Positions 2,905-50,789 are shown, numbered from the stretch's first letter. The stretch: DNA of 55,401 nt from Minisyncoccales bacterium (GCA_049641805.1 JBARNX010000043.1:1-55401), one strand, 5' to 3'. Numbers and translations: made by a program. Notes: a model not told the origin generated them from the sequence alone.

Positions 2905-3025
2905 AAATAATTTAAAATTTAAATATCAAAGTTTAAAATTTTTGTGTTGAAATTTTTTGAAAAAAATTTCAATGATATATAATTTTCCTTAATTTTGATT
3001 TTTGATCTTTTGGCTTTTCACTTTT
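2905..3025. repeat. Family-A palindromic AT-rich intergenic repeat, copy A1 (approximate ends)
   Basis: AAATATCAAAG..TTGTGTTGAAATTTTTT..AAAAATTTCAATGATATAT..TTCCTTAATTTTGATTTTTGATC. Fills the rpsD-rpsK spacer. Confidence 0.8.
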
Positions 3026-3480: not shown

Positions 3481-3593
3481 ATTAATTTAAAATGTAAATA
3501 TCAAAATGAAAAATTATTGTGTTGAAATTTTTTTAAAAATTTTAACAATATATTATTCCTTGATTTTGATTTTTGATTTTTCAACTTTTAATT
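3481..3593. repeat. Family-A repeat, copy A2
   Basis: AAATGTAAATATCAAAATG..GTTGAAATTTTTTTAAAAATTTTAACAATATATTATTCCTTGATTTTGATTTTTGATTTTTCAACTTTTAA. Confidence 0.85.
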
Positions 3594-3597
3594 TGTC

Positions 3598-9544: not shown

Positions 9545-9630
9545 AAATGAAAATTGAAATTAAAAATGCCGCAAATCTAAATTTTGATATTTTACACTAT
9601 CATTTTGATTTTTGATTTTTACATTTTAAT
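9545..9630. repeat. Degenerate family-A-like hairpin in the ftsE-ftsX spacer
   Basis: AAATGAAAATTGAAATTAAAAATG ... CATTTTGATTTTTGATTTTTACATTTTA. Confidence 0.55.
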
Positions 9631-10329: not shown

Positions 10330-10338
10330 ATGGATGCC

Positions 10339-10423: not shown

Positions 10424-10424
10424 G

Positions 10425-18074: not shown

Positions 18075-18216
18075 TTAAATCCGAAGCACGAAATCCGAAA
18101 CAAGCAAGAATTTTCAAAATTAAAATGTTTTAAACAAAACGCGGATTTTTGTTTTGAAAATTTTTAAATTAAAATTTCGATATTGTTTCGGATTTCGAAA
18201 TTCGATATTCGGATTT
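18075..18216. repeat. Family-E hairpin (ATCCGAAA/TTTCGGAT words), copy E1
   Basis: AAATCCGAAGCACGAAATCCGAAACAAG ... TTGTTTCGGATTTCGAAATTCGATATTCGGATTT. Confidence 0.65.
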
Positions 18217-18218
18217 AA

Positions 18219-25526: not shown

Positions 25527-25534
25527 TTTTTGAC

Positions 25535-25560
25535 AAAACTGTCCCGCCAAAGCGGGACAG
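25535..25560 (-). terminator. GC hairpin plus U tract between adk and map, ending 8 nt before the map ATG (terminator- or attenuator-like)
   Basis: The minus strand reads CUGUCCCGC-UUUG-GCGGGACAG-UUUUGUCAAAAA-AUG. Confidence 0.5.
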
Positions 25561-25574
25561 CAGATATCCTGGCA

Positions 25575-26363
25575 TTAAATTTCGTAAACTTTGAAACACG
25601 GCCCCAGCGCATCCAAAATGTCGGAAAAAACATTTTCCACATATTGGTCGGCATTGATCTTTTTCAAATTAAAATTCCGGCTGCGGTAATAATCTTCCAG
25701 CGGCGCCATAGTTTGATCATATTCTTCCAAGCGCAATTTTATGGTTTCCACATTATCCAAATCGCGATGGATCAACCGCGATCCGTCGAGCGGACAGCGC
25801 CTCAAATTGGCATTTTCCGGAATATAAAGGATTGAATGGCGCATCAATTCGCAGATCCGGCGGTTGCTGTTGCGAAAAATCGTCTGTTCTCGCGGCAAAT
25901 CGAGAAAGAAGATATGAATGTTTTTCTTGCCGTAGAGTTTTTCCAAAAAAGGAATTTCTATTTCGGCTTCCGGCAATGACCGCGGAGATCCGGATAATAT
26001 GAGCGACTTGCCCAGGCTGTGTATCTCGGCCATTCTTTTATTCATCAGGCAAGCCGTGAATTCCACCGAACACAACACGCCTTTGCGCCTCTTCTCAAGC
26101 TCGACATCAATAGGATATCTCTTGCCCTCGATTTCGATTGTTTCGCCGGATTTCGCGTTCTTGAATTTTTCCTCAAGCACGCGGCTGGTATCCAGATTAT
26201 AGAAATAGAATTTAGACGCCAGCAACTCCGACTGCGTACCTTTGCCCGCGCCCGGAGGACCAAAAAGCAATATCACTTTCTTGATATGGTTGCCGGGGAG
26301 ATTGTTGGAAGATACATTGCCGCCTTCGGCGGACTGGAAAATTTCTTTGTTAAAAAGTTTCAT
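25575..26363 (-). CDS. adk: Adenylate kinase, long form with a ~30-aa N-terminal extension
   Basis: P-loop LLFGPPGAGKGTQS. Canonical secY-adk-map position. Confidence 0.85.
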   Translation of the reverse strand: MKLFNKEIFQSAEGGNVSSNNLPGNHIKKVILLFGPPGAGKGTQSELLASKFYFYNLDTSRVLEEKFKNAKSGETIEIEGKRYPIDVELEKRRKGVLCSVEFTACLMNKRMAEIHSLGKSLILSGSPRSLPEAEIEIPFLEKLYGKKNIHIFFLDLPREQTIFRNSNRRICELMRHSILYIPENANLRRCPLDGSRLIHRDLDNVETIKLRLEEYDQTMAPLEDYYRSRNFNLKKINADQYVENVFSDILDALGPCFKVYEI

Positions 26364-27630
26364 ATTCGCGCATTTGAAGCTGAGCCCTGATTTGTCGCAC
26401 AGTTTCCAGAATAACGCTAACCGCGATCAAAAGCGATGTACCGCCGATCAAAAAACTGAATGAATTGATGCCCGTAAACGATCCGATCACCTGCGGCATA
26501 ATCGCGATTATTCCCAAAAACACCGCGCCCACAAGAAGCACCCGATTCAAAATATAATGCAGAAAATCGGCGGTCGGGGTTCCGGGACGAATACCGGGAA
26601 CAAACCCGCCCATCTTTTGCAAATTATTCGATATTTGCTTAGGGTCGAATGTCACTGCGGTATAAAAATAAGTGAAAAGCACCACCAGCAGGAAATAAGA
26701 AGCCATATAGAACGCGCTATCGGCCTGGAAAAGATTGGCGGTTGCCTGCGCGACACTGCCCACCCATCCGGGCGAAGAAACCAGAAAATTGGCAATCATT
26801 GACGGAAACAGCAATATCGAAAGCGCGAAGATAATTGGAATCACGCCCGCCGGATTGATATTCAACGGCAAATAGGTTGATACCCCGCCCACCATTTTCA
26901 TCCCCCGTACGCGTTTGGCATACGACACGGGAATATTGCGCCGCGCTTCATTAACCAATACCACCGCGGCCACCATCGCAATCGCCATCACGAAAAACGC
27001 GATGTAGCCGGGAATCATCGACGGATCATAAGCGGATGCCATTTGTTGGACATTCTTTGGAAAATCGGCCACAATGCCGGCAAAGATCAAAAGCGAAACG
27101 CCGTTGCCGATCCCCTTTTCGGTTATCAATTCGCCCATCCACATCAAAAGCATCGATCCGGCCGTGATCGTCAAAAGCGCCGCAACCATTACCAAAGGCG
27201 AGGAAAACTCCACCACATTCTGGCGTTGCAGCAATATCATCATCGCGTAACCTTGCAATAATGCCAAAGGAACCGTAGCGATGCGCGCATATTGGTTAAA
27301 TTTGGTCCGGCCCGCTTCGCCTTCTTCCTTATACATCTTCTCCAGCGTCGGAAAAATCATTGTCAATAACTGCAAAATAATGATTGCCGTAATGTAAGGC
27401 CCGAGCCCGAGCATCGCAATCGAAAGCCGATCCATTGATCCGCCCGTAAACGCGCCTAAAAGCTGAAACATCTGAAACTGGCCGAAGAATATTTTCAGCT
27501 GATTGACATCGATTCCGGGAATCGGGATATTGCACATCATCCGGTACAGCGCAAAAGCTCCCAGCACAAAAATAATCTTGTTGCGCAAGTCCTTGATCTT
27601 AAAAGCCTGAATTACAGTTTGGTACCACAT
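26350..27630 (-). CDS. secY: Preprotein translocase subunit SecY
   Basis: 10-transmembrane pattern with LGLGPYITA.II.QLL and GIGNG.SL.IF.GI. The TTG track start at 27663 lies inside repeat A3 and was trimmed to the ATG at 27630. Confidence 0.92.
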   Translation of the reverse strand: MWYQTVIQAFKIKDLRNKIIFVLGAFALYRMMCNIPIPGIDVNQLKIFFGQFQMFQLLGAFTGGSMDRLSIAMLGLGPYITAIIILQLLTMIFPTLEKMYKEEGEAGRTKFNQYARIATVPLALLQGYAMMILLQRQNVVEFSSPLVMVAALLTITAGSMLLMWMGELITEKGIGNGVSLLIFAGIVADFPKNVQQMASAYDPSMIPGYIAFFVMAIAMVAAVVLVNEARRNIPVSYAKRVRGMKMVGGVSTYLPLNINPAGVIPIIFALSILLFPSMIANFLVSSPGWVGSVAQATANLFQADSAFYMASYFLLVVLFTYFYTAVTFDPKQISNNLQKMGGFVPGIRPGTPTADFLHYILNRVLLVGAVFLGIIAIMPQVIGSFTGINSFSFLIGGTSLLIAVSVILETVRQIRAQLQMREYETF

Positions 27631-27748
27631 TTCAAAATTAAAAATGTAAAAATCAAAGATCAAAATTAAGGGAAAAACATATCGTTAAAATTTTGCCCTG
27701 AAAAATTTTAACTCCAAAATTTTTAACTTTGATCTTTTAACTTTTAAT
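27631..27748. repeat. Family-A repeat, copy A3 (inverted orientation)
   Basis: AATGTAAAAATCAAAGATCAAAATTAAGGGAAAAACATATCGTTAAAATTTT..AAAATTTTAACTCC..TTTTAACTTTGATCTTTTAAC. Confidence 0.85.
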
Positions 27749-28178
27749 TTTTTACGCTGCCGCCCGCTTTCTCTATCTTTTCCTTCGCCGATTTGGAAAC
27801 TTCACAATCCTCGACAATCAAATTCTTGGTAATTTTTCCCGTACCCAGTATCTTTATTTCGGAATATCGACCCGAAACCCGGGGCGCCAAATTCATTTCC
27901 ACCAAAGTTCTGGGAGTGACTTTCTGGCCGTTTTCGAATTTTGATTCAAGCTCCTTGATATTCACAATTTCCGCCTTAACGCCAACTTTATGGTTTTTAT
28001 AACCTCTCAATTTGGGATAGCGCTTTAAAACATCCCTGATGATCGGACGAAAATTGCGGCCCGATCTTGCGGTCTGGCCCTTGCCGCCGTGGCCCGAATA
28101 AGTGCCGCGCTTGCCTCCGCGGCCGACGCGCTTCCGGGATTTGACGGCGATTTTAACGGCTAATTGATGTATCTGCAT
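27744..28178 (-). CDS. rplO: 50S ribosomal protein L15
   Basis: RKRVGRGGKRGTYSGHGGKGQTARSG. Confidence 0.93.
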   Translation of the reverse strand: MQIHQLAVKIAVKSRKRVGRGGKRGTYSGHGGKGQTARSGRNFRPIIRDVLKRYPKLRGYKNHKVGVKAEIVNIKELESKFENGQKVTPRTLVEMNLAPRVSGRYSEIKILGTGKITKNLIVEDCEVSKSAKEKIEKAGGSVKN

Positions 28179-28202
28179 AAATAGTAAATTAGTTTTCGCG
28201 CG

Positions 28203-28910
28203 CTACTTGGCGACCGGCGTCACTTCCGGCTCCTTGATCGCCGGCGCGACAACTTCCGGTTTTTTGGAAGTTTGAAGTTTCAGATATTCAAAAGCTTTTA
28301 AAGTCGCGCGCGCGTTGTTCAATTTATTTTTAGTCGTACCCAACATTTTGGAAGAAATGTCTTTTATCCCGGCCAGCTGGCAAATCAAGCGCACCACGCC
28401 GCCCGCCATCAAACCGCGGCCTTTGCGCTGGGGCTTGATGATAACCTGAGCGGGGCCGACCTTGGCAACCGCTTCGTGGGAAATCGTTCCCTTGACCACC
28501 GGCACAATCACCATATCCTTTTTTGACTGAATGGTCGCTTTTTCGACTGCTTGAGCCACATCCAAACCGGAAGCGACCCCCAAGCCAACTTTGCCCGCCT
28601 TATTGCCGCTGATCACGATCGCGCGAAAACGCAACCGCCGTCCTCCGGCGCGAGTATGGGAAACCCTCGACAAATCAAGCAGTTTGGAATCCATACCGTC
28701 GCGATCCTTTTCTTCGCGTTTGCCGTAACCTCCCCGCGATCTGCCGCCGCCGAAACGGCTATCGCCTTTGGGCCGCGAAAACCGATTGTCCTGGCCGCGA
28801 AAACCGCTCCGGTCGTTCCGGGGCGCAACTTGTGCCGCCGCCGGCGTTGCCGGAACAGCCGCAACCTGCGGCACCGTTCCTTTTTGTGTTGTTTGTTGTG
28901 TTGCTTCCAT
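28203..28910 (-). CDS. rpsE: 30S ribosomal protein S5 with a ~75-aa RGG/Q-rich N-terminal extension
   Basis: VSHTRAGGRRLRFRAIVISGN..G.VG.G...........A............ plus the C-terminal S5 domain. Only 24 nt separate it from rplO, so there is no room for L30. Confidence 0.92.
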   Translation of the reverse strand: MEATQQTTQKGTVPQVAAVPATPAAAQVAPRNDRSGFRGQDNRFSRPKGDSRFGGGRSRGGYGKREEKDRDGMDSKLLDLSRVSHTRAGGRRLRFRAIVISGNKAGKVGLGVASGLDVAQAVEKATIQSKKDMVIVPVVKGTISHEAVAKVGPAQVIIKPQRKGRGLMAGGVVRLICQLAGIKDISSKMLGTTKNKLNNARATLKAFEYLKLQTSKKPEVVAPAIKEPEVTPVAK

Positions 28911-28927
28911 GTTTCAATTTTGATTTT

Positions 28928-29311
28928 TTAGAACTCCAATCCTCCTTTGCGCGCGCCTTCCGCCAGACTCTTCACTCGGCCGTGATAGCGGTAAGCTCCG
29001 CGATCAAACACGACCTGTTTGGCTTTTAATTCCTGCGCGGCTTTGGCGATCGACTCGCCAACCGTAAACGCCATCGCGCATTTTTCGGACAACTCGCCTT
29101 TCCGACCGGCCGCCTTTACCGCCTTCAAATCGCTGCTGACCGCCAATGTCACTCCTTTTTGGTCATCGATCAACTGGGCCAGAATGTGCTTGTTTGACCT
29201 GAATACGCACAACCGAGGTTTTGCCGCCGTACCCGAAATCCGGGCGCGAACGCGGCGATGCCGATCCGTTTTTCGCTGTATTTTATGCTTAATTTTATTT
29301 CTGATGCTCAT
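28928..29311 (-). CDS. rplR: 50S ribosomal protein L18
   Basis: [29 protein letters not shown]...VVFDRG.Y.YHGRVK.LAEGAR.GGL.F. Confidence 0.94.
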
Positions 29312-29319
29312 AGATAGTT

Positions 29320-29403
29320 TTAATCACCAATCTTCAATCATTAACCCTTAACATAAATTAATTCCGCATTTCGCTAAAGATTAAAAGATTGACAGTTAAT
29401 GAT
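29320..29403. repeat. Family-F hairpin, copy F2
   Basis: AATCACCAATCTTCAATCATTAAC ... CTAAAGATTAAAAGATTGACAGTTAATGATT. Confidence 0.55.
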
Positions 29404-29948
29404 TATTTCGCGCCGGCCGCCGCCTTCTTGCCAACCTTCTTGCGCACTTTTTCGCCGACATAACGGATTCCCTTGCCCTTATAAGGCTCCGGCGGTCGAA
29501 CCCGGCGAATCTGTGCCGCCACTTTGGAAACCAATTCCTTATCGCAACCCGACAAGCTAATGATATTTTTTTCAACTTTAAAAACAACTCCCGGTTCGGC
29601 ATCAATCGCAACCGGATGGGAAAACCCCATATTCAAAACCAAACCCTTGCCTTCAACCGCCGCGCGGTACCCGATTCCCTCAATTTGCAATTGTTTGACA
29701 AAATCCTGAGTTGATCCCTGAACCATATTTGCCAAATGCATTCTGACCGTACCCCACATCGCGCGCGCAACTTTGCTTTCATTGGCGGGATTCACCGTTA
29801 AAACCGACGCCTCTTTGGTAATTAAAACCTCCGGACCGAAATTCCGCGATAGTTGCCCTTTCGGACCCTTTACCGTAATTTTCGCGCCATCAATGGCGAC
29901 ATCAACTCCGGAAGGTATGATTATTGGTTTCTTGCCTATTCTGCTCAT
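29403..29948 (-). CDS. rplF: 50S ribosomal protein L6
   Basis: MSRIGKKPI.IP.GV.V.I.G..ITVKGPKG.L. Confidence 0.94.
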   Translation of the reverse strand: MSRIGKKPIIIPSGVDVAIDGAKITVKGPKGQLSRNFGPEVLITKEASVLTVNPANESKVARAMWGTVRMHLANMVQGSTQDFVKQLQIEGIGYRAAVEGKGLVLNMGFSHPVAIDAEPGVVFKVEKNIISLSGCDKELVSKVAAQIRRVRPPEPYKGKGIRYVGEKVRKKVGKKAAAGAK

Positions 29949-29954
29949 TTTGCT

Positions 29955-30066
29955 TAATTTAAAATTGAAATATCAAAATGTAAAATTGTTGTGTTAAAAT
30001 TTTCTTTAAAAATTTTAACGATATATCTTCCTTAATTTTGATCTTTGATTTTTAAACTTTTAATTT
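29955..30066. repeat. Family-A repeat, copy A4
   Basis: GAAATATCAAAATGTAAAATTGTTGTGTTAAAATTTTCTTTAAAAATTTTAACGATATATCTTCCTTAATTTTGATCTTTGATTTTTAAAC. Confidence 0.88.
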
Positions 30067-30070
30067 TCTA

Positions 30071-30475
30071 TTACCAGATCTCGCAAAGCATTTCTCCGCC
30101 GATGTTCTGTTTCTTGGCTTCGTATTCAGTCATCAACCCCTTGGAAGTCGTGATTATCCCTATGCCATGGCCCTGCTTCACTCTTTTGATATCGCCCGCG
30201 GCCACATAAACCCTCAAACCCGGCTTGGAAATCTTTTTGTAACCCGAAATTGCCGGAATTTTATTCGTATATTTCAAAGAAATCTCCAGACAAGGATGCA
30301 TTTTGCCGGTCTTTTTTATTTTCCGGCTCTTTTTTTCCACGCCCGCGACAAGCCCTTTTCTTTCCAAGATTTTGGCAACGGCATATTTCATGCTCGAATA
30401 CGGCACCGCCACCAACGGCTTTTCCACCGCCTGCGCATTGCGGATCATTGTTAACATATTTGCGACTGTATCCAT
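30071..30475 (-). CDS. rpsH: 30S ribosomal protein S8
   Basis: DTVANMLT.IRNA......V..P.S......A.IL...G......GIGII.TS.G.MT...A....IGGE.LC..W. Confidence 0.94.
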   Translation of the reverse strand: MDTVANMLTMIRNAQAVEKPLVAVPYSSMKYAVAKILERKGLVAGVEKKSRKIKKTGKMHPCLEISLKYTNKIPAISGYKKISKPGLRVYVAAGDIKRVKQGHGIGIITTSKGLMTEYEAKKQNIGGEMLCEIW

Positions 30476-30480
30476 GTTTC

Positions 30481-30592
30481 AAATTTAAAATTCAAATATC
30501 AAAATGTAAAATTGTTGTGTTAAAATTTTTAAAGAAAATTTTAACGATATATTTTCCCTTAATTTTGATCTTTGATTTTTCAACTTTTAATT
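30481..30592. repeat. Family-A repeat, copy A5
   Basis: Near-identical to A4: TCAAATATCAAAATGTAAAATTGTTGTGTTAAAATTTTTAAAGAAAATTTTAACGATATATTTTCCCTTAATTTTGATCTTTGATTTTTCAAC. Confidence 0.88.
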
Positions 30593-30597
30593 ATTTA

Positions 30598-30783
30598 TTA
30601 CCAGCTGCTTTTCGTTACCCCCGGAATCAGACCTTTGTTGGCCGCCTCTCGGAAGCAAATCCGGCATAAACCGAATTTCCTCATATAACCGTGCTTTCTG
30701 CCGCACTTAAAACATCTGCGCACGACCCTTGATTTGAATTTGGGAGTCCTTTTTGATTTGGCGATTTGTGCTTTTGTTGCCAT
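30598..30783 (-). CDS. rpsN: 30S ribosomal protein S14, short zinc-binding (type Z) form
   Basis: 61 aa with [18 protein letters not shown]......PGV.K.SW. Confidence 0.93.
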
Positions 30784-30789
30784 ACTGAT

Positions 30790-30898
30790 AATTCAAAATT
30801 TAAATATCAAAATGTAAAATTATTGTGTTAAAATTTTCTAAAAGAATTTTAACGATATATTATTCCTTGATTTTGATTTTTGATTTTTCAACTTTTAA
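30790..30898. repeat. Family-A repeat, copy A6. The rplE stop codon lies in its last arm.
   Basis: AATTCAAAATTTAAATATCAAAATGTAAAATTATTGTGTTAAAATTTTCTAAAAGAATTTTAACGATATATTATTCCTTGATTTTGATTTTTGATTTTTCAACTTTTAAC. Confidence 0.88.
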
Positions 30899-31455
30899 CT
30901 TTCTCTGATCGGGAATTTAAGAAGTTTGAACAGAGCCGCGCCTTCTTCCTTGGTTTCCGCGGTCGTCACTACCGTAATTTCAAAACTGAAAATAAAATTT
31001 ATTTTTTCCGGCGAAATCTCCGGAAACGCGATGTGTTCTTTTATGCCAAAGGTCAGATTGCCGGCTTGATCGATCCCTTTCGGGGGAATACCTTGAAAAT
31101 CGCGCGACCGGGGCAAGGCCACCGTGATCACTCTTTCCAAAAAATCATACATCTTGTTGCGCCTCAAAGTCGATTTGGCGCCGATATTCTGGCCTTCGCG
31201 GATCTTAAAACTCGAAATTGAGTTCTTCGCCTGCGTTACCATCGCTTTCTGGCCGCAAATTTGGGTAAGGTCGCGGGCAACCGCTTCCTGGATTTTTTTC
31301 TGTTCATCCTTGGTTTTCCCCGAAACCAAACGGCCAAAACCGCAGTTAACCACAACTTTTTCAATCTTGGGAACCTCCATTTCGTTGCGATAGCCAAACT
31401 GCTTCATCATTGCCGGTACCGCTTCCTTTTTATATTTTTCCAATAAATAAGCCAT
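30895..31455 (-). CDS. rplE: 50S ribosomal protein L5
   Basis: VPKIEKVVVN.G.G ... RDF.G....G.D..GN.TFGI.E...FPEI. Confidence 0.94.
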   Translation of the reverse strand: MAYLLEKYKKEAVPAMMKQFGYRNEMEVPKIEKVVVNCGFGRLVSGKTKDEQKKIQEAVARDLTQICGQKAMVTQAKNSISSFKIREGQNIGAKSTLRRNKMYDFLERVITVALPRSRDFQGIPPKGIDQAGNLTFGIKEHIAFPEISPEKINFIFSFEITVVTTAETKEEGAALFKLLKFPIRES

Positions 31456-31463
31456 ATCAGAAC

Positions 31464-31572
31464 AAATTCAAAATTTAAATATCAAAATGTAAAATTATTG
31501 TGTTAAAATCGCTTGCAATTTCAACGATATATTATTCCTTAATTTTGATCTTTGATTTTTCAACTTTTAATT
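31464..31572. repeat. Family-A repeat, copy A7. Shares a private inner variant with A8.
   Basis: Inner module AAAATCGCTTGCAATTTCAAC at 31505-31525, identical to 32765-32785. Confidence 0.88.
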
Positions 31573-31574
31573 TT

Positions 31575-31898
31575 TTAGATCTCGGATAGGCACTTTTTGC
31601 AAATCCTAACCGTATTTTTACCGCCATCCTTGCCGCCTTCGATCACTTTATATCCGACTCTCGCCGCCTTGCCGCATTTGGGACAAATAAGCTTCACATT
31701 GGACGCGTCGATGGATTTTGGCAAGGAAACGATCTGGCCTTTTTGCCCCTGTTGTCTCGGTTTCTGGCTTTTTTTGGCGATATTCACGCCTTCCACCACG
31801 ATCCGCCCGTCTTTAGGCAACGCCGTCAAAACCTTTCCGGTCTTGGCACGGTCTTTCCCGGATATCACCAATACATTATCGCCTTTGATTATCTTCAT
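31575..31898 (-). CDS. rplX: 50S ribosomal protein L24 with a C-terminal Cys4 (zinc-ribbon-like) extension
   Basis: KOW motif KGDNVLVISGKDRAKTGKV. The C-terminus has CPKC...CKKC. Confidence 0.9.
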   Translation of the reverse strand: MKIIKGDNVLVISGKDRAKTGKVLTALPKDGRIVVEGVNIAKKSQKPRQQGQKGQIVSLPKSIDASNVKLICPKCGKAARVGYKVIEGGKDGGKNTVRICKKCLSEI

Positions 31899-31915
31899 AT
31901 ATAAACTTTAAGCCT

Positions 31916-31975
31916 AAAGCGAAAAGTGTAAAGTAAGAATTCGAATCCGTATTTTTACTTTGCACTTTGCGCTTT
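31916..31975. repeat. Unique 21-bp-arm hairpin in the rplX-rplN spacer
   Basis: AAAGCGAAAAGTGTAAAGTAA / TTACTTTGCACTTTGCGCTTT, with 2 mismatches. Confidence 0.6.
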
Positions 31976-31988
31976 TAGTTTTGCACTT

Positions 31989-32360
31989 TTATACCAGTTC
32001 TTCGGCCAACGCCGCCACTTTATCGTAACCCTTCTCTTTTAATTCCTTGGCAACCGGTCCAAAGATCCTTCCGCCTTTGGGTTCCATTGTCTTGCCTTCC
32101 AAAACCACGCAGGCGTTGTCGTCGAAGCGCACATATGTGCCGTCCTGGCGTTTGTACTCTTTTTTCTGCCGAATGATCACCACCCGCACTTTTTCGTGTT
32201 TTTTAACCATCTTGCGCGGATCGGCTTCTTTGACCGCGGCCATCACCACATCGCCCACCGCCGCGTACCGCCGCCGCGTACCGCCGGACACATGGAAACA
32301 CTGGACGATCCTTGCCCCTGTGTTATCCGCGACCTTAAGCATTGTTCGAAGTTGAATCAT
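31989..32360 (-). CDS. rplN: 50S ribosomal protein L14
   Basis: MIQLRTMLKVADNTGAR...C..V.GG....YA.VGD......K. The TTG track start at 32396 was trimmed to the ATG at 32360. Confidence 0.94.
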   Translation of the reverse strand: MIQLRTMLKVADNTGARIVQCFHVSGGTRRRYAAVGDVVMAAVKEADPRKMVKKHEKVRVVIIRQKKEYKRQDGTYVRFDDNACVVLEGKTMEPKGGRIFGPVAKELKEKGYDKVAALAEELV

Positions 32361-32447
32361 ATTAATATCGCCTCTTTTCGGCGTCTGAATAATCAAAGTT
32401 TAAAACGGAGTAATTGTACTATAAAAATTAAAAAAATGCAACCCTGA

Positions 32448-32720
32448 CTACCCGGCGGTTTTAGCTTCTTTTTCTTCCGCCTTGGCCGCGGCGATCTTTC
32501 CTGCCACTTTCCAGCGCTTATCGGCCGACATCGGACGGCATTCCTCGATCACCACCGCGTCGCCAATCTTGTATTCGCCGGTTTCGCAATGAGCTTTATA
32601 TTTTTTACTCACCTTATACCGTTTGTGGTATTTGGGATGTTCTTTTAAACGCTCAACCAAAACCACCACGGTTTTAGCCATTTTGTCGGACATGACTTTT
32701 CCTGTTAATTGATGCTTCAT
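32448..32720 (-). CDS. rpsQ: 30S ribosomal protein S17
   Basis: L.GKV.SDKM.KTVVV.VER...HP.Y.K......KY.AH......GD.V.I.ECRP.S..KRW.V. Confidence 0.93.
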
Positions 32721-32724
32721 ATCT

Positions 32725-32834
32725 AATTCAAAATTTTAATATCAAAATGTAAAATTATTGTGTTAAAATCGCTTGCAATTTCAACGATATATATTTTTCC
32801 TTGATTTTGATCTTTGATTTTTCAACTTTTAATT
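32725..32834. repeat. Family-A repeat, copy A8. The rpmC stop lies in its last arm.
   Basis: Same AAAATCGCTTGCAATTTCAAC inner variant as A7 (32765-32785). Confidence 0.88.
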
Positions 32835-33020
32835 TTCTATGGTTTCTTTTTGCAAAGTTTTAATCCGCGCGACATCCAGCTTTATCTGCCGGACTTCTTT
32901 CAAATTCTTCACTTTGCCCGCCGACAAATCAAATCTCAACTCGGCCAGCTTGGCAAGTTTTTCATCCAGCATCACGGCTAATTCTTGTTTATTTTTTTGG
33001 CGCAATTCGGAAGTTTTCAT
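32829..33020 (-). CDS. rpmC: 50S ribosomal protein L29
   Basis: MKTSELRQKNKQEL...L......LRF......KN......K.D.ARI.T. The TTG track start at 33035 was trimmed to the ATG at 33020. Confidence 0.88.
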   Translation of the reverse strand: MKTSELRQKNKQELAVMLDEKLAKLAELRFDLSAGKVKNLKEVRQIKLDVARIKTLQKETIEN

Positions 33021-33040
33021 TTTATGTGATTTCAATATGC

Positions 33041-33463
33041 TTAGAATTCTTTTTTGACAAATCTGGTTTTGATCGGCAATTTATCGCCGGCCTTCTCGAG
33101 CGCCTCGCGGGCGATATCTTCTTTAACGCCATCCAACTCAAACATCAAGCGGCCGGGCTTCACCACAAAAGCGTAATGGTCAACTCCTCCCTTGCCGCCG
33201 CCCAAAGGCACTTCTTCGCCTTTGCTGGTTACCGGCTTGTCCGGGAATATTCTGATCCAAAGCTTGCCGCCCTTCTTTAAATATCTTAAAATCGCCCGGC
33301 GGCCCGCTTCGATCTGGCGCGAAGAAATCCATTTCTCTTCAAGCGCTTTCAAACCGAAACTGCCGTAATTCAACTCGGCTCCGCGGTACGAAAGACCGAT
33401 ACCGCGGCGGCGGCCCTTCTGCCATTTGCGATGCTTAACTTTTTTTGGCATTAAAATTGACAT
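33041..33463 (-). CDS. rplP: 50S ribosomal protein L16 (start uncertain: ATG at 33463 or ATG at 33451)
   Basis: (MSIL)[17 protein letters not shown]......G..L.YG.FGLKA.E...I..RQIEA.R.A. The TTG track start at 33502 lies in hairpin C2. Confidence 0.9.
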
Positions 33464-33474
33464 ATACTCAATAA

Positions 33475-33556
33475 TTTCAAATTTCCAATTTCCAAATGTC
33501 AAATTAAGAATTTTGGCATTGGATATTCATTGGAAATTGGACATTTGGAATTGGAC
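33475..33556. repeat. Family-C hairpin, copy C2
   Basis: TCAAATTTCCAATTTCCAAATGTCAAAT ... ATTGGAAATTGGACATTTGGAATTGGA. Confidence 0.65.
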
Positions 33557-33560
33557 TTTT

Positions 33561-34223
33561 TTAGATTTTCTCCCCTTTATATATCCACACCTTGATCCCG
33601 ATGACGCCGTAGGTGCAATGCGCTTCGGTCAGCTCGTAATCAATATCGGCCCTAATGGTTTGCCGCGGCAAACGCCCCTTGCCAAGCCACGCCGTGCGCG
33701 CGATTTCAACACCGTTCAACCTTCCCGCCACCTGAACCCTCACTCCCTGCACATCCCGCGAACCCATAGCCTTCTCTATCGATTGCTTCAGAACCTTCAA
33801 ATAAGGCATCCGCTTCTCGATTTGCGCCGCGATTGATTGGCCGATATAAGCCGCCGATGCCCAGGGATTCGTGATTTCTCTGATTTCAACGCGCAAATCC
33901 GCGCCGTTCTTTTTTGTTTTGCCGGTTTTCGGTCCCTTAAAAATCAATTTCTCCAATTTCTTCCGCAACTCCTCAATCCCTTGCCCCTGGCGGCCGATAA
34001 TAAGACCCGGGCGCACGCATGAAATTATCACATTCATTTTGCCGGGAAACCGGTCGATCTCAACCTCGGAAATGCCGATGCCCGCGAGGCGCTTGTGAAG
34101 GAATTGGCGTATCAGAAAATCTTCTTCCAGCATCGCAGGAAATTTCTTTTCGTAATAACCGCGGGAATACCATCCCGAGCTGTCTTTTATTCTGAATCCT
34201 TTCGGATGAACCTTGTGAGCCAT
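33561..34223 (-). CDS. rpsC: 30S ribosomal protein S3
   Basis: MAHKVHPKGFR....S.W.S.......F...L.ED..IR (KH domain), plus GRLNG.EIAR.....G..P..T.RADIDY. Confidence 0.94.
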   Translation of the reverse strand: MAHKVHPKGFRIKDSSGWYSRGYYEKKFPAMLEEDFLIRQFLHKRLAGIGISEVEIDRFPGKMNVIISCVRPGLIIGRQGQGIEELRKKLEKLIFKGPKTGKTKKNGADLRVEIREITNPWASAAYIGQSIAAQIEKRMPYLKVLKQSIEKAMGSRDVQGVRVQVAGRLNGVEIARTAWLGKGRLPRQTIRADIDYELTEAHCTYGVIGIKVWIYKGEKI

Positions 34224-34228
34224 AGTAA

Positions 34229-34308
34229 TAATTCAAAATTTAAATATCAAAATGTAAAATTGTTGCGTTATTCCTTGATTTTGATCTTTGATTTTTCAAC
34301 TTTTAACT
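34229..34308. repeat. Family-A short form (no inner module), copy A9. Its right arm is translated as the L22 C-terminus.
   Basis: AATTCAAAATTTAAATATCAAAATGTAAAATTGTTGCGTTATTCCTTGATTTTGATCTTTGATTTTTCAACTTTTAAC. Confidence 0.85.
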
Positions 34309-34636
34309 TTTCTTTAAGTATCATTGTGATATGAGCCGTTCTTTTTTGCAGTTTGTCGGCGCGGCCGCGCGATCTGGGAAAAACTCTTTCCGACATCGGG
34401 CCGTCGTTAACCATCAATCGATCAATATAAAAATTATTCGGATCCAATTTATAAGTATTCTTCGCCGTCGCCATCGCCGATTGCAAAAGCTTCAATATCG
34501 GCAAACTGGCCTTCTTGGCGGTAAATCTCAAAATCGCTTCGGCCTCGGTCGTCGATTTGTATCTCACCAGATCCGCCACCATCCTCACTTTCCGGGCGGT
34601 GATCTTTAAATTTCGTAATTTTACCGTGATTGCCAT
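34268..34636 (-). CDS. rplV: 50S ribosomal protein L22. The last ~12 residues (LKVEKSKIKIKE) are encoded by repeat A9.
   Basis: ARKVRMVADLVR......A..IL.F..K.A......L.SA.ATA.......P....I....V..GP...R..PR.RGRA....KRT.HIT.IL. Confidence 0.92.
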   Translation of the reverse strand: MAITVKLRNLKITARKVRMVADLVRYKSTTEAEAILRFTAKKASLPILKLLQSAMATAKNTYKLDPNNFYIDRLMVNDGPMSERVFPRSRGRADKLQKRTAHITMILKEKLKVEKSKIKIKE

Positions 34637-34643
34637 ATTAGTA

Positions 34644-34722
34644 AATCAAAATGTAAATATCAAAATGTAAAATTGTTGCGTTATTCCTTGATTTTGATCT
34701 TTGATTTTTCAACTTTTAACTT
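34644..34722. repeat. Family-A short form, copy A10
   Basis: From ATATCAAAATG through CAACTTTTAAC it is identical to A9. Confidence 0.85.
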
Positions 34723-34723
34723 T

Positions 34724-35044
34724 TTACTTCTTCTTTGCCGATGCCGCAACGGTTACCGCTCCGGCGCTCGCCTGCTTGGCTTCAAGATCCTTTTGCATCT
34801 TGCCGCCGTGGCGATGGAATTTGGTCGTCGGAGAAAATTCTCCCAGCTTATGCCCCACCATTTCTTCATTGGGCTTGACCGAAATGAATTCTTTGCCGTT
34901 ATGAACCGCGAATGCCAGCCCGATCATTTCGGGAACGATCGTGCTCCGGCGCGACCAAGTCTTAATGACCGCAATGCCGCCCTTTTTGACTTTTTCCATT
35001 AATTTCTCGTCCACGAAAGGACCTTTTTTTAAACTTCGTGCCAT
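34724..35044 (-). CDS. rpsS: 30S ribosomal protein S19 with a short A/K-rich C-terminal extension
   Basis: [15 protein letters not shown]..........[14 protein letters not shown]...AVHNGK.F..V.....[14 protein letters not shown]. Confidence 0.94.
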
Positions 35045-35048
35045 ATAA

Positions 35049-35145
35049 ATAATTCAAAATGAAAATTATTGTGTTGAAATTTTCTTTAAAAATTCCAACG
35101 GTATATTTTTCTTGATTTTGATCTTTGATTTTTCAACTTTTAATT
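35049..35145. repeat. Family-A repeat, copy A11 (left arm truncated)
   Basis: AATTCAAAATGAAAATTATTGTGTTGAAATTTTCTTTAAAAATTCCAACGGTATATTTTTCTTGATTTTGATCTTTGATTTTTCAAC. Confidence 0.8.
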
Positions 35146-35149
35146 TTCA

Positions 35150-35923
35150 CTATTTCGCTCTTCGTTTGACAATTAACTTACTGGTCCACTTTCTCGGATT
35201 GCGGGTACGAACGCCCATTGCCGGTTTGCCCCACGGAGTCTTGGGATGCCTCAATCCGATACCCGTCCGTCCCTCGCCGCCGCCATGCGGATGGTCGCAG
35301 GGATTCATCACCGAACCGCGCACCGTCGGCCGCCATCCTTTCCTTCTCATCGCGCCCGCAGTATGATAATTTTCGAATCGGTATTCCGGATGCGAGGTCT
35401 TGCCGATCGACGCGTAACATTCCGCCGGCACTTTCCTCACTTCTTTAGAAGGCATCTGCAATTGGACAAATTGGCCTTCGGTAGCCATCACCCGCGCCGC
35501 CGATCCGGCGGACCTTGCCATCTTCCCGCCTTTTCCGGGCTGTAATTCGATATTAAAAACTTCGGTACCGACCGGAATGTTTTTCAGCATCACGCGATTG
35601 CCGGTTTTGATCGCCGCGGTTTCGCCGCAAATGATGTCTGCCCCCGCCACCAATTCATCGGCCGCCAAAACATAGCGCCGGTCCCCGTCATCGTATTTCA
35701 CCAATGCCAAATACGCGGTGCGGTTCGGATCGTATTCCATGGCGATCACTTTTCCCGCGATTCCGAATTTTTCCTGTCCAAAATCAACCACGCGGTACAT
35801 CCTTTTGACGCCGCTGCCGCGATGGCGAACCGTGATCCGGCCGGAGAAATTCCTGCCCGCCTTGCTTTTTAACGGCCTAAGCAAATGCTTTTCCGGCCTT
35901 TTTTTGGATAATAAAACCTTCAT
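35150..35923 (-). CDS. rplB: 50S ribosomal protein L2 (short N-terminus)
   Basis: GRITVRHRGSGVKR.YR.VDF and GSVMNPCDHPHGGGEGR. The TTG track start at 35941 lies in hairpin D1 and was trimmed to the ATG at 35923. Confidence 0.92.
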   Translation of the reverse strand: MKVLLSKKRPEKHLLRPLKSKAGRNFSGRITVRHRGSGVKRMYRVVDFGQEKFGIAGKVIAMEYDPNRTAYLALVKYDDGDRRYVLAADELVAGADIICGETAAIKTGNRVMLKNIPVGTEVFNIELQPGKGGKMARSAGSAARVMATEGQFVQLQMPSKEVRKVPAECYASIGKTSHPEYRFENYHTAGAMRRKGWRPTVRGSVMNPCDHPHGGGEGRTGIGLRHPKTPWGKPAMGVRTRNPRKWTSKLIVKRRAK

Positions 35924-35929
35924 AATAAT

Positions 35930-36064
35930 TTCCAATGTCAAATTTCAAATGTCAAACAAAATCCTAATGCCAAATGTCAAAATAAAATACGGTAATTTAA
36001 TTTTGGCATTTGACATTTGAACTTTGGCATTTGTTTGAAATTTGTCATTTGGATTTTGACATTT
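35930..36064. repeat. Family-D hairpin (CAAATGTCAAA/TTTGACATTTG words), copy D1
   Basis: CCAATGTCAAATTTCAAATGTCAAACAAAATCCTAATGCCAAATGTCAAAAT ... TTTTGGCATTTGACATTTGAACTTTGGCATTTGTTTGAAATTTGTCATTTGG. Confidence 0.7.
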
Positions 36065-36480
36065 TATTTAGGCAGAACTTCAATGCTCTGGCCTTCCTTG
36101 ATTTTCACGATCGCCTTGCGATAGCCCGGTTCCGTGACAATTCCGCGGCCGCGCCGGCGCCGCTTGCCGGGGACATTCACCACATTCACGCCTACGACTT
36201 CCACTCCGTAATAATTTCCAATCGCGCGGGCAACTTCTTTTTTGTTCGCGCCGCTTGCCACTTTGAAAACATACTGGTTGATTTTCACAAGTTTTGAAGC
36301 CTTTTCGGTCACATGCGCGTGTTCCAAAACCCGCATTGCCTGTCCGCTGACTTTGCGAACGGTTTTAACGCTCTCGCCCGTTTTGGCGACGACGGATTTC
36401 TTTTCTTTTTTTAACGCCGCGCTTTTTTTAACGCCGGAATATTTGCCGCCCTCTTTTTTGAATATGTCGGTGATTGCCAT
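36064..36480 (-). CDS. rplW: 50S ribosomal protein L23 with a ~45-aa K-rich N-terminal extension
   Basis: TEKA........N.Y.FKV...ANK.EV..AI...Y.V.V..VN..N..GK.RR...........KA.V....G. Confidence 0.9.
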   Translation of the reverse strand: MAITDIFKKEGGKYSGVKKSAALKKEKKSVVAKTGESVKTVRKVSGQAMRVLEHAHVTEKASKLVKINQYVFKVASGANKKEVARAIGNYYGVEVVGVNVVNVPGKRRRRGRGIVTEPGYRKAIVKIKEGQSIEVLPK

Positions 36481-36482
36481 AG

Positions 36483-37202
36483 CTATTTCTTTTTATTCGC
36501 GGATTTCTTGGCGGTTTCGACGATCTTTACCGCTTCTTTTTTCTTGCTTTCGTCCGGCTTTTTGGCTGCGACCGCGCCAATATCGCTGATCGCTCCCACC
36601 GGCATCAACAAACATTTGGTATTCAACAAATCAAGAACATTGAGCTTGGCCGCTTCAATCGTTTTTACATCGGCAAGATTGCGGCTCGCCAAAACTTCGT
36701 TTTTGGCCGCCGCGGGCAACGCGATCATTATTTTTCCTTTTTTGAAATTATCGTTGACTTTTCTGACGCTTTCCAAAACTCGGAGCATTTCTTTGGTTTT
36801 AGGCTGGCTAACCGCCAAGCTTTCAAGAAAGAACAGCGAGTTGGCCGAAACTTTGGCCGTCAATATCATCGCCAGGGCTTTCCGTCTCATTTTCTTGTTG
36901 ATTTTTCCGCCGTAAATCTTTTCATTGGTCGGACCAAAAACCACTCCTCCATGGCGCCATTGCGGCGATCTGATTGATCCCTGCCGCGCGCGGCCGGTAC
37001 CCTTCTGCCTCCACGGTTTCTTGCCGCCGCCGGATACTTGGCCCCTGCCTTTCGTATGCGCCGTTGACTGCCGCCGGTTATTCATCTGGGTCGTCGCCAC
37101 CTGATAAACCAAATCTCGGTTCATCTTGACTTCAAACAAATCTTTCGGAAGTTCAATCGTCCCCGCGGCTTCCCCTTTTTGATTGTATGTCGTAACTTGC
37201 AT
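36483..37202 (-). CDS. rplD: 50S ribosomal protein L4 with a K-rich C-terminal extension
   Basis: GGGKKPWRQKGTGRARQGSIRSPQWRHGGVVFGP. Confidence 0.94.
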   Translation of the reverse strand: MQVTTYNQKGEAAGTIELPKDLFEVKMNRDLVYQVATTQMNNRRQSTAHTKGRGQVSGGGKKPWRQKGTGRARQGSIRSPQWRHGGVVFGPTNEKIYGGKINKKMRRKALAMILTAKVSANSLFFLESLAVSQPKTKEMLRVLESVRKVNDNFKKGKIMIALPAAAKNEVLASRNLADVKTIEAAKLNVLDLLNTKCLLMPVGAISDIGAVAAKKPDESKKKEAVKIVETAKKSANKKK

Positions 37203-37207
37203 ATTCT

Positions 37208-37317
37208 TAATTCAAAATGTAAAAATCAAAAATCAAAATCAAGGAATAATATATCGTTAAAATTTTTTTAAAAAATTTTAACTCCATAATTTTCAACTTT
37301 GATCTTTAAACTTTCAA
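37208..37317. repeat. Family-A repeat, copy A12 (inverted orientation)
   Basis: AATGTAAAAATCAAAAATCAAAATCAAGGAATAATATATCGTTAAAATTTTTTTAAAAAATTTTAACTCC..TTTTCAACTTTGATCTTTAAAC. Confidence 0.85.
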
Positions 37318-37914
37318 TTATCCCCGGATTTCCAATAGTGTTCCTTTTCTTCCCGGAACCGCGCCCAAAATTGCCATCAAATTCTTTTCCGCGTCAACCA
37401 TCACGATTTTCAAATTTTTCACGGTAACCCGGTCAACTCCCATCCGTCCCGGCATCTTCTTTCCTTTGCGAATCGCCGCGCCGCCCATTCCCACCGAACC
37501 GACATTGCGCAATTCGTGTTTAGTGCCGTGCGTGCAGGAAAGCCGTCCCTTGAAACCATGTTTTTTAACCGCCCCCTGAAAACCCTTGCCTTTGGAAAGG
37601 CCGGAAACTTTAATAATATCTCCCTCTTTGAAACTGTCCACCTTGACCGAATCGCCAGCTTTCAAATCCAAACCGCCGCCAATGCTCCGATATTCTTTAA
37701 TGGTCCGAAACGGCTTTCCCGCCTGACTCTTTTTGATCCGCTTTGAAGCGATATCGCCAAATCCCAACTGCACCGCCGCGTAACCGTCGTTTTCCTTGGT
37801 CTTTAATTGCGTCACCCGGCAAGGTCCGGCCTCAATCATCGTAACCGGCATCCTTTTGCCGCTGGCCGCGAAGATTTCTGTCATTCCGATTTTTTTTCCT
37901 AAAATGAATTTCAT
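37318..37914 (-). CDS. rplC: 50S ribosomal protein L3
   Basis: GKKIGMT.IF...G...PVT.IEAGPC.VTQ.KT...DGY.AVQLGF ... GKGFQG..K.HGF.G. Confidence 0.94.
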   Translation of the reverse strand: MKFILGKKIGMTEIFAASGKRMPVTMIEAGPCRVTQLKTKENDGYAAVQLGFGDIASKRIKKSQAGKPFRTIKEYRSIGGGLDLKAGDSVKVDSFKEGDIIKVSGLSKGKGFQGAVKKHGFKGRLSCTHGTKHELRNVGSVGMGGAAIRKGKKMPGRMGVDRVTVKNLKIVMVDAEKNLMAILGAVPGRKGTLLEIRG

Positions 37915-37933
37915 GTTGGCAGTTTAACAATGG

Positions 37934-37953
37934 AAAACCGGGCATAGCCCGGT
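37934..37953 (-). terminator. GC hairpin plus U tract between rpsJ and rplC (attenuator- or terminator-like)
   Basis: The minus strand reads ACCGGGC-UAU-GCCCGGU-UUUCC, 20 nt upstream of the rplC ATG. Confidence 0.45.
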
Positions 37954-38018
37954 CCCAACTATGGCTATTTCTTTAATATTTGATTTCAATATACTGGATC
38001 CAAAAGCAATTATTACGA

Positions 38019-39782: not shown

Positions 39783-39918
39783 CCAATTACCAATTCCCAA
39801 TTACCAATAAATGCCAGAATGTCCAATATCAAAATTCAAATTTCATTTATATTTTCAAATTGGACATTTTTAAATTTTGGAATTTATTGGAAATTTGTCA
39901 TTGGAAATTGGAAATTTC
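39783..39918. repeat. Family-C hairpin, copy C3 (largest)
   Basis: CCAATTACCAATTCCCAATTACCAAT ... ATTGGAAATTTGTCATTGGAAATTGGAAATTTCC, in the 249-nt tuf-fusA spacer. Confidence 0.65.
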
Positions 39919-39919
39919 C

Positions 39920-42028: not shown

Positions 42029-42030
42029 AA

Positions 42031-42150
42031 AAATGCAAAATGTAAAAATCAAAGATCAAAATGACAATGTAAAATGTTAAAGTGTCGCGACATGGACATT
42101 TTGCAACTTTACATTGTCATTTTCCATTTTGATTTTTCAATTTTAAATTT
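42031..42150. repeat. Family-B hairpin repeat, copy B1
   Basis: AAAAATCAAAGATCAAAATGACAATGTAAAATGTTAAAGTGTCGCGACATGGACATTTTGCAACTTTACATTGTCATTTTCCATTTTGATTTTTC. Confidence 0.85.
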
Positions 42151-49065: not shown

Positions 49066-49074
49066 GAATTTAGT

Positions 49075-49190
49075 TGAAAATTAAAAAATCAAAGATCAAA
49101 ATGACAATGCAAAATGTTAAAATGTCGCGATTTGGACATTTTTTCACTTTAAATTGTCATTTTACATTTTGATTTTTACATTTTACATTT
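49075..49190. repeat. Family-B hairpin repeat, copy B2
   Basis: AAAAATCAAAGATCAAAATGACAATGCAAAATGTTAAAATGTCGCGATTTGGACATTTTTTCACTTTAAATTGTCATTTTACATTTTGATTTTTAC. Confidence 0.85.
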
Positions 49191-50475: not shown

Positions 50476-50621
50476 GGTATTATTTATTATTTATTATTTT
50501 TACTTGTCCTTATTCGAACTTATTCAATATGCCGGTTTGATTAAAACGACCTTTAACCAGCCTAGATTCATTGCTTTATATAGAGTAATTGAGCTTAAAA
50601 ATTAAGTCAAGAGTAAAATCA

Positions 50622-50738
50622 ATTTAAAATTAAAAAATCAAAGATCAAAATGACAATACAAAATGTTAAAATGCCGCGATTTGGATATTTTTCAACTTTA
50701 AATTGTCATTTTCCATTTTGATTTTTTCATTTTACATT
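50622..50738. repeat. Family-B hairpin repeat, copy B3 (in the divergent 50475/50790 spacer)
   Basis: AAAAATCAAAGATCAAAATGACAATACAAAATGTTAAAATGCCGCGATTTGGATATTTTTCAACTTTAAATTGTCATTTTCCATTTTGATTTTTTC. Confidence 0.85.
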
Positions 50739-50789
50739 AAACGCGGTTTATTCTAATATAGAGCCATCTCGATCTAAATTTAAATAAAT

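Follow-up and report, generated by a model that had tools for sequence, protein, structure and literature searches.

A family of non-coding, AT-rich palindromic repeats of about 110 nt, here termed family A, was found between the genes of the S10/spc/alpha ribosomal-protein clusters in a 55,401-nt stretch of DNA from Minisyncoccales bacterium (GCA_049641805.1, JBARNX010000043.1:1-55401; the whole stretch is referred to below as the window). Copies are gained, lost, internally deleted, swapped for other repeat families and given new modules, and this turnover of elements is much faster than point substitution. Our best reading is that family A is a non-coding, non-autonomous element that has spread into the very short, AT-rich gaps between the stop codon of one gene and the start codon of the next where the two run in the same direction. 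[quoted passage not shown]

The window comes from a Candidatus Nealsonbacteria metagenome-assembled genome (MAG; Patescibacteria, candidate phyla radiation, CPR), and retrieval of related loci based on L2 placed it in Patescibacteria/Paceibacteria, near Nealsonbacteria and Staskawiczbacteria. All ribosomal-protein genes of the window lie on the minus strand. The flanking open reading frames (ORFs) are, in order, S10, L3, L4, L23, L2, S19, L22, S3, L16, L29, S17, L14, L24, L5, S14, S8, L6, L18, S5, L15 and SecY, labelled after the Pfam assignments of locus L088 (99.995% identity to the window); a second (alpha) cluster comprises IF1, S13, S11, S4, RpoA and L17 according to Pfam. For comparison, 21 genes were mapped in 80 related loci, giving 20 junctions from S10 to SecY (written below as upstream>downstream gene). 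Close comparisons were made with the closed genome CP092821.1 of Candidatus Nealsonbacteria DGGOD1a (locus L087), reached by exact-protein look-up with S14, and with L085, a less closely related congener whose sequence comes from the same metagenome.

Twelve family-A copies of 81–118 nt were present in the 55 kb (Table 1), occupying 10 of the 20 junctions between S10 and SecY and two junctions of the alpha cluster; all 12, as well as all of the approximately nine copies in 20 kb of DGGOD1a, are located at ribosomal-protein junctions. An nhmmer profile built from the full copies recovered 12/12 with E values between 4e-26 and 3e-11, at positions deviating by no more than a few bases from those listed in an earlier note on this DNA, and repeat finding in the window grouped the same sites. 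The left-arm word ATATCAAAATGTAAAATT occurred 18 times in the window at up to three mismatches (0.43 expected from shuffles) and a 28-nt right-arm word 12 times (0.00 expected), while alignments revealed 85–95% identity between copies over ~110 nt. The elements are ~80% A+T and the spacers 20–25% GC. A degenerate thirteenth copy, which the earlier note had placed at 9545–9630, was not upheld, as it shares arm words only, failed to reach E<1e-3 in the profile search and showed no fold (z 0.05). The statement that family A separates almost every gene also proved too strong, although four more junctions (L23>L2, S3>L16, L14>L24 and L6>L18) carry unrelated AT-rich palindromes with folding energies of −21 to −42 kcal/mol (z −3.2 to −5.4). 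The contrast drawn between long spacers and a compact norm was borne out by relatives with spacers of 1–20 nt; spacers with family A measure 87–122 nt.

Table 1 Coordinates of family-A copies, members of other palindrome families and one short spacer in the window (E values from the nhmmer family-A profile)
Feature	Position	Strand	Location	Evidence and remarks
Family A, full	30788..30903	-	L5>S14	E 4.2e-26; TAA in 5' arm is L5 stop
Family A, full	31462..31574	-	L24>L5	E 1.2e-25; private inner variant GTTGAAATTGCAAGCGATTTTAAC
Family A, full	30480..30593	-	S14>S8	E 3.7e-25
Family A, full	32723..32837	-	L29>S17	E 4.6e-24; private inner variant GTTGAAATTGCAAGCGATTTTAAC, as in 31462..31574
Family A, full	29954..30068	-	S8>L6	E 1e-23
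Family A, centre inverted relative to transcription	37208..37322	+	L3>L4	E 1.4e-23
Family A, full	3483..3595	-	S13>S11 (alpha)	E 3.9e-22; flanks by Pfam
Family A, centre inverted	27633..27750	+	L15>SecY	E 1.2e-21
Family A, 3' arm truncated	35047..35149	-	L2>S19	E 3.5e-20
Family A, full	2907..3024	-	S11>S4 (alpha)	E 3.7e-20; flanks by Pfam
Family A, short form	34228..34310	-	L22>S3	E 6.7e-12; inner hairpin deleted
Family A, short form	34642..34722	-	S19>L22	E 2.9e-11; deletion boundary same as in neighbour 34228..34310
Doubtful decayed relative	9545..9630	-	between ftsE and ftsX (Pfam)	arm words only (3 mismatches); repeat family D3
Family B	42030..42150	+	S7>EF-G	arm words shared with A, different core; repeat family D7; -34.1 kcal/mol, z -5.6
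Family B	49072..49189	+	between adenylate-kinase-like and metallo-beta-lactamase-fold genes	fold z -7.6
Family B	50621..50739	+		repeat finding and nhmmer profile
Family D palindrome (AAAGCGC words)	31899..31988	-	L14>L24	fold z -3.5
Family F palindrome (AAATGTC/GACATTT words)	35924..36063	-	L23>L2	-42 kcal/mol, z -5.4
F-like palindrome	33464..33560	-	S3>L16	fold z -3.2
Family E palindrome (TTAATC/GATTAA words)	29312..29402	-	L6>L18	related copy 10330-10424; z -4.2 and -7.1
17-nt spacer aaaatcaaaattgaaac	28911..28927	-	L18>S5	DGGOD1a has 149-nt inverted family A exactly here

Alignments of the copies displayed the four-part architecture proposed earlier (outer arm, inner hairpin, linker and second outer arm) and the two short forms without the inner module, the inner hairpin being kept in 10 of 12 copies; the private inner variant that 31505–31525 and 32765–32785 had been said to have in common was likewise correct. 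Family-A arms supply stop codons and a protein tail to adjoining genes: several genes end at a TAA inside the 5' arm, and L22 reads into it (34268–34315, minus strand), acquiring a 13-residue Lys-rich C-terminal tail, KLKVEKSKIKIKE, which is translated from the 5' arm in both the window and L085. No insertion inside an ORF was seen, overlap being restricted to C-termini (the L22 tail and the element-borne stops). Three of the four inverted copies (27633–27750 and 37208–37322 in the window, L6>L18 and L18>S5 in DGGOD1a) have what look like forward-type 3' termini in the last ~20 nt before the ATG. This suggests that the central segment alone was flipped by recombination between the arms, with terminal alignment scores too close to decide.

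Comparison of orthologous operons, an approach proposed in the earlier note, revealed polymorphic insertions as evidence of mobility. Coding DNA of DGGOD1a and the window is 95.7% identical (91.1% at 4-fold sites), and element content differs at 14 of the 20 junctions. Family A of the window is replaced by family C in DGGOD1a at L3>L4 and L24>L5, while the reverse is seen at S3>L16 (F in the window, full family A in DGGOD1a) and L6>L18 (E versus inverted family A); at L23>L2 the exchange is between F and D. At L18>S5, the 17-nt spacer is either empty or the footprint that the fused termini of an inserted family-A copy left behind; TTGAAA borders the filled copy of DGGOD1a at either end, although this hexamer also belongs to the terminus of the element itself. 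Full copies at L5>S14 and S14>S8 correspond to fused-termini remnants of 38 nt and 34 nt, respectively, and L2>S19 carries a C-like element in DGGOD1a and an unrelated 45-nt spacer in L085. Spacers without elements were unchanged (S10>L3 97% and S17>L14 99% identical), and the elements at L14>L24 and L29>S17 were kept at 94% and 90%. The L29>S17 copy of DGGOD1a is orthologous, with the same flanks and a different inner hairpin. Only two neighbouring window copies have the private inner variant, and the one at L24>L5 is lineage-specific (family C in DGGOD1a), which indicates local copying between neighbours because the L29>S17 variant matches precisely this copy.

A similar picture was obtained with L085, which is 80.5% identical to the window in coding sequence and 59.7% at 4-fold sites. 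Other families or no element at all were found there at seven junctions with family A in the window; L3>L4 is occupied by family C and L23>L2 by family D. Since L085 has the long form with the same flanks at L22>S3, the short form of the window represents a 32-nt deletion of the inner hairpin. The 3' arm alone is kept in L085 at S19>L22 and S14>S8. An assembly artefact was excluded by independent assemblies, including a closed PacBio genome.

Two further kinds of DNA were observed in these junctions in DGGOD1a. One is a REP-like, GC-rich module (cccgccagaggcggg tgcgcctcaggcgca) that measures ~32 nt, contains two short hairpins and is present at the same relative position in six of its family-A copies (S19>L22, L22>S3, S8>L6, L6>L18, L18>S5 and L15>SecY), that at S8>L6 being the ortholog of 29954–30068; the module is absent from the whole 55-kb window. 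The other is a clean 183-nt insertion of a different element at L16>L29 (7596–7798), having terminal inverted repeats (TIRs) of ~22 nt (ggtcttttccacaaataacttcc ... ggaacttatttgtggaagagccc), with the TAA stop duplicated relative to the window's 20-nt spacer. The duplication looks Tourist/IS5-like, and the insertion shows that transposition into these junctions happens.

The 5' arm and inner hairpin are therefore dispensable, and an element as a whole can be exchanged for one of an unrelated family or be missing. Because arms and hairpins are deleted or replaced in near-identical strains, the behaviour of family A is that of a mobile, largely selfish element. Of the options raised in the earlier note, the MITE/REP-like one was the one favoured by strain presence/absence, family replacement, internal deletions, module gain and local copying, and size (<300 bp), copy number, TIRs and insertion polymorphism all agree with features of bacterial MITEs. 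The elements may spread in trans by transposases, of which sister genome DGGOD1a is reported to encode 39 (bioRxiv 10.1101/2022.04.20.488981), or alternatively or additionally by recombination between the word-repeat arms, mostly at short range within the operon. They would be tolerated in a lineage that does not rely on Shine-Dalgarno (SD) spacing, where any AU-rich sequence upstream of a start would suffice and an insertion would leave no SD-ATG spacing to break. After insertion, the 25–45 nt beside the ATG would come under purifying selection as the translation-initiation region of the downstream gene (or, less likely, as a weak promoter), while the 5' arm and inner hairpin would remain dispensable. 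The operon would still be read from conserved canonical signals, namely a promoter ahead of L14 and, ahead of L3, a leader with a hairpin.

A number of observations weigh against this explanation. TTA flanks 8 of 10 forward copies but is inseparable from the terminal AATT palindrome, and no target-site duplication is definable. The 20 window proteins that were scanned included no transposase, and no autonomous partner with matching ends was found, though no genome-wide search for one was made. At least six unrelated families with one architecture in a 1.16-Mb genome are hard to reconcile with sequence-specific transposases, and confinement to ribosomal junctions suggests a preference or benefit beyond a purely selfish model. 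Furthermore, ATG-proximal conservation could be explained by concerted evolution instead of selection. A possible, though not a likely, reading is that SD-less Paceibacteria junctions form a niche for domesticated interchangeable modules. These would act as per-cistron expression units, and their rapid swapping between strains would amount to regulatory evolution of ribosomal-protein stoichiometry, not mere parasitism; the AU-rich 3' arm could then serve as a ribosome landing pad or a leaderless/short-leader promoter, and the hairpin as a processing or insulating device.

Conservation of the start-codon side suggests some constraint, and this part was probably co-opted to serve expression. At three junctions shared between the window and L085, 38/45, 44/45 and 40/45 of the nucleotides before the ATG were identical, i.e. 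90% (122/135) versus 60% at 4-fold sites, and this holds where the 5' arm is gone. In DGGOD1a the last ~25 nt before the ATG are kept even where the GC-rich module replaces the adjoining upstream sequence. Site-specific variants in the copies favour orthology over homogenisation. SD motifs were nearly absent upstream of ribosomal-protein genes in ~65 Paceibacteria loci, compact or expanded, compared to 13–16 of 14–20 genes in control lineages (Berkelbacteria- and Anaerolineae-labelled). Given this near absence, initiation in the window lineage appears to be SD-independent. Across 264 junctions in relatives, T was found at −1 in 64% and A at −3 in 52%. SD-like motifs within 15 nt upstream numbered 0–4 of ~20 genes per locus (L005–L084 and the window). 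A loop-out hairpin that restores SD-ATG spacing for translational coupling was considered and rejected, as upstream genes end without SD motifs.

The same ATG-proximal block raises the question of per-gene promoters, an option of the earlier note that we consider unlikely. According to it, the ATG-proximal arm would be a sigma-70-type promoter from which each ribosomal-protein gene is transcribed separately, in the form of either TTTACA-N17-T[AG]AATT followed by ~6 nt and the ATG (leaderless) or TTAACA-N17-GATATT (~15-nt leader). Matches to TTAACA-17-GATATT in five copies and to TTTACA-17-TAAATT in two are in its favour, as are the distance of 4–9 nt (mostly 6–7 nt) from the −10-like hexamer to the ATG across 12 copies, the lack of SD motifs at the downstream genes and a conserved block that is kept alone in L085. 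However, the enrichment of promoter-like sites concerns both strands and does not discriminate, with matches of the same quality on the antisense strand of seven copies, and no peak of TANNNT or −35-like hexamers at a fixed distance from the ATG was seen in 264 long junction spacers of relatives. The distance itself is largely forced, because ancestral spacers were only 1–20 nt. In DGGOD1a the GC-rich module replaces both candidate −35 boxes, leaving the final ~25 nt alone. Compact relatives do without internal promoters, and a conserved canonical promoter is located at the expected start of spc.

This canonical signal is a sigma-70-like TTGCAT-N17-TACAAT in the S17>L14 spacer (32413–32441, minus strand); L005, L006 and L085 have a similar spacer. 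The signal probably represents the true promoter of the spc operon, in which case the canonical operon boundary would be retained. The S10>L3 spacer (37915–38018) contains a GC-rich hairpin and, after it, a U tract (gaccgggcuaugcccgguuuucc, 37932–37954, minus strand) ~20 nt upstream of L3, also present in L005, L006, L085 and L047. This spacer is at least 80 nt long in nearly all Paceibacteria loci, even in otherwise compact operons, and its hairpin is a candidate attenuator or leader for an operon starting at L3. With canonical GC-rich hairpins in use, the A-U palindromes are unlikely terminators. Intrinsic terminators were also rejected directly, since 0/12 terminator-like matches in 27.4–39.9 kb were inside an element and the stems are A-U.

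Folding of family A was generally weak. On the transcript (minus) strand, folding energies of the 10 forward copies ranged from −6.7 to −17.7 kcal/mol (z +0.05 to −3.5), and the antisense strand folds better in 7/10. Strong whole-element folding was restricted to the two centre-inverted copies: 37208–37322, the strongest transcript-strand hairpin (−31.1 kcal/mol, z −6.3), and 27633–27750 (−24.9 kcal/mol, z −3.2). The RNAalifold consensus consisted of a 9-bp inner hairpin only, with one covarying pair (AU in 6 copies, GC in 2, GU in 2 and AC in 1), and the paired alternatives noticed earlier in the inner stem are hence real. This hairpin pairs only via G.U on the transcript strand in 31462–31574, 32723–32837 and 35047–35149, and only on the other strand in 3483–3595. 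The earlier description of palindromic arms was accurate insofar as the consensus allows pairing between the outer arms (27 pairs, 87–93% of cells pairing versus 59–67% when slid by one column). Their pairing is imperfect and mostly A-U, however, and without covariation, as shuffles reached the observed score in 500/500 cases.

It is improbable, in our view, that the elements exist as selected RNA structures, that is, as sites for RNase III or other processing, or 3'-end stabilisers, which would cut the polycistronic mRNA. The inner hairpin of 10/12 copies, its covarying pair and the three copies with G.U pairs confined to the transcript strand would fit such a role, and so would the other window palindromes with their stronger folds. 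Moreover, 212 long junction spacers in relatives are mostly strong hairpins (median z −3.1; 67% below −2). The median is the same on both strands, though, with no strand preference across the 212 spacers. This symmetry, the weak transcript folds and the loss of the hairpin or a whole arm in both short forms and several relatives' copies speak against RNase III processing or mRNA stabilisation, both suggested in the earlier note, as the element's raison d'être; compact relatives and empty junctions do without any hairpin. In Rfam searches only tRNAs reached the gathering score, and at E<=1 there were chance matches to plant miRNA hairpins, none of them in family A.

The 80-locus comparison places these junctions in a wider context. 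Many relatives (e.g. L010, L013, L026, L036 and L060) have a fully compact operon with spacers of 1–20 nt, whereas the window and L005, L069, L052, L047, L055, L033 and L041 have ~90–120 nt at most junctions. Long-spacer relatives carry families of their own, not A, in the form of imperfect palindromes with arms of tandem 7–11-nt words that begin at the stop codon and extend almost to the next ATG, ending a few bases short of it. Since many Paceibacteria are compact and others are filled by different families, long spacers are neither ancestral nor required. Palindrome-filled junctions are widespread, recurrent and strand-symmetric, as the 212 spacers fold alike on both strands and the families differ. 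A family-A-specific word was found in metagenome contigs only in the same population and one congener. An exact scan of genome contigs for the arm word gave just four single matches, at varied housekeeping junctions of other Patescibacteria-type MAGs, and the scan of viral contigs gave none.

These comparisons also bear on chance AT-rich low complexity, an explanation with next to no probability. It might be invoked for spacers of 20–25% GC, arm pairing that is partly compositional and several copies that fold no better than shuffles, and it is refuted by the word counts against shuffles and the profile matches, in addition to the identity between copies. The earlier note had named equal stability of shuffled spacers, absence of covariation and equally long spacers without the element in relatives as signs of low complexity. 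Shuffles were unable to match the stability of all copies, and covariation, though minimal, was detected. Relatives' spacers are indeed equally long without family A, yet this does not imply low complexity because they are filled by other repeat families.

The recurrence of one palindrome after each gene, variable in sequence and common in architecture, together with the phased 7–11-nt words that build the arms in every family, is reminiscent of structure-recognised recombination sites (integron attC-like) or of iteron-like protein-binding arrays with phased 7-nt words as the binding units. We regard this as very improbable. The genes concerned are core ribosomal-protein genes in canonical order and not cassettes, the inner hairpin GTTAAAA...TTTTAAC is the reverse of R''(RYYYAAC)...R'(GTTRRRY) of attC, and the window proteins that were scanned did not include an integrase. 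Given that word sequences are entirely different from family to family, recognition by a single protein is unlikely.

Among known systems, the Correia elements (CREE/NEMIS, a Neisseria MITE) are similar to family A in being 100–155 bp long with imperfect TIRs and many copies next to or between genes. They are also co-transcribed, have long and short forms through internal deletion and vary in presence between strains, and their ends can create promoter-like hexamers and their RNA hairpin an RNase III substrate (PMC2649163; reviews PMC2229807, PMC3184786, PMC10969869). There is no sequence relation, however, and CREE are defined by TA target duplication and an IHF site, whereas family A has word-repeat arms, shares one junction niche with several unrelated families in an SD-less CPR host and brings the ribosomal-protein superoperon near saturation. 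RPEs likewise comprise several families of ~100–150 bp in the reduced genome of a host-associated bacterium, with an unknown mobilising enzyme and parts translated in frame with host genes (PMC10969869), comparable to the L22 tail and element-borne stops seen here. They typically lie inside ORFs, unlike family A, which lies between ORFs and overlaps gene ends only.

REP/BIME and ERIC (IRU) elements are also palindromes in transcribed intercistronic regions of operons, with long and short variants, and can stabilise upstream mRNA (PMC2229807, PMC3184786). REPs are GC-rich, 20–40 nt long, characterised by a GTAG tetranucleotide and tied to RAYT, and ERIC has a fixed 127-nt consensus; family A, in contrast, is AT-rich, ~110 nt long, without GTAG in the alignments and not in Rfam. 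Membership of REP/RAYT (judged by length, composition and motif), attC, intrinsic terminators or an Rfam family was accordingly rejected. The intercistronic RNase III sites of phage T7 are fixed, conserved and functional. They resemble family A as hairpins between consecutive genes of a long polycistronic transcript, but family A is polymorphic between near-identical strains and often lacks the hairpin.

The earlier note knew of no description of such an arrangement, and this is consistent with the literature searched, in which no paper linked CPR/Patescibacteria with MITEs, leaderless promoters or intergenic palindromes, or MITEs with ribosomal-protein operons; such elements are mentioned neither in the paper on DGGOD1a nor in a 2024 review of MITEs in prokaryotes. 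While the element class itself is familiar, the filling of the intercistronic niche of the ribosomal superoperon nearly to saturation is new, as are the coexistence of at least six unrelated families with the same word-repeat architecture, the extremely fast turnover and the SD-less CPR setting. The S10/spc/alpha cluster ranks with the most compact and best conserved gene arrays of bacteria and forms the backbone of CPR phylogenomics. Its occupation by several palindrome families with fast turnover shows that this compactness is not obligatory once SD-dependent coupling is relaxed, and the filled junctions offer a natural experiment on translation of internal cistrons in SD-less bacteria. On the practical side, the repeats will break or mis-join assemblies within the marker block used to place CPR genomes, and they provide highly sensitive markers of strains. 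Since the sister strain DGGOD1a is available in an enrichment culture, the promoter, processing and translation questions can be tested directly.

At least five further palindromic families (B, C, D, E and F) occur at other gene junctions of the window (Table 1). The family-B element at 42030–42150 was detected with the family-A profile (nhmmer E 8.8e-8), and copies homologous to the family-D element at 31899–31988 constitute the dominant junction family of L005 (>10 junctions). Arms of the further families are made up of phased 7–8-nt words, mostly with an A-rich 5' arm and a T-rich 3' arm, family E (TTAATC words) excepted. Additional palindrome sites were seen at 18085–18218, 39790–39919 and 2239–2261.

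As for the genes themselves, the window has no L30 gene between S5 and L15, an absence typical of CPR bacteria. The RpoA ORF (1468–2157, minus strand) encodes 229 aa with Pfam matches to the N-terminal and insert domains only; no alpha C-terminal domain is apparent, and a genuine lack of it would mean that UP elements are not recognised. The alpha cluster (965–4434) is separated from SecY-adk-map (24726–27630) by ~20 kb of unrelated genes.

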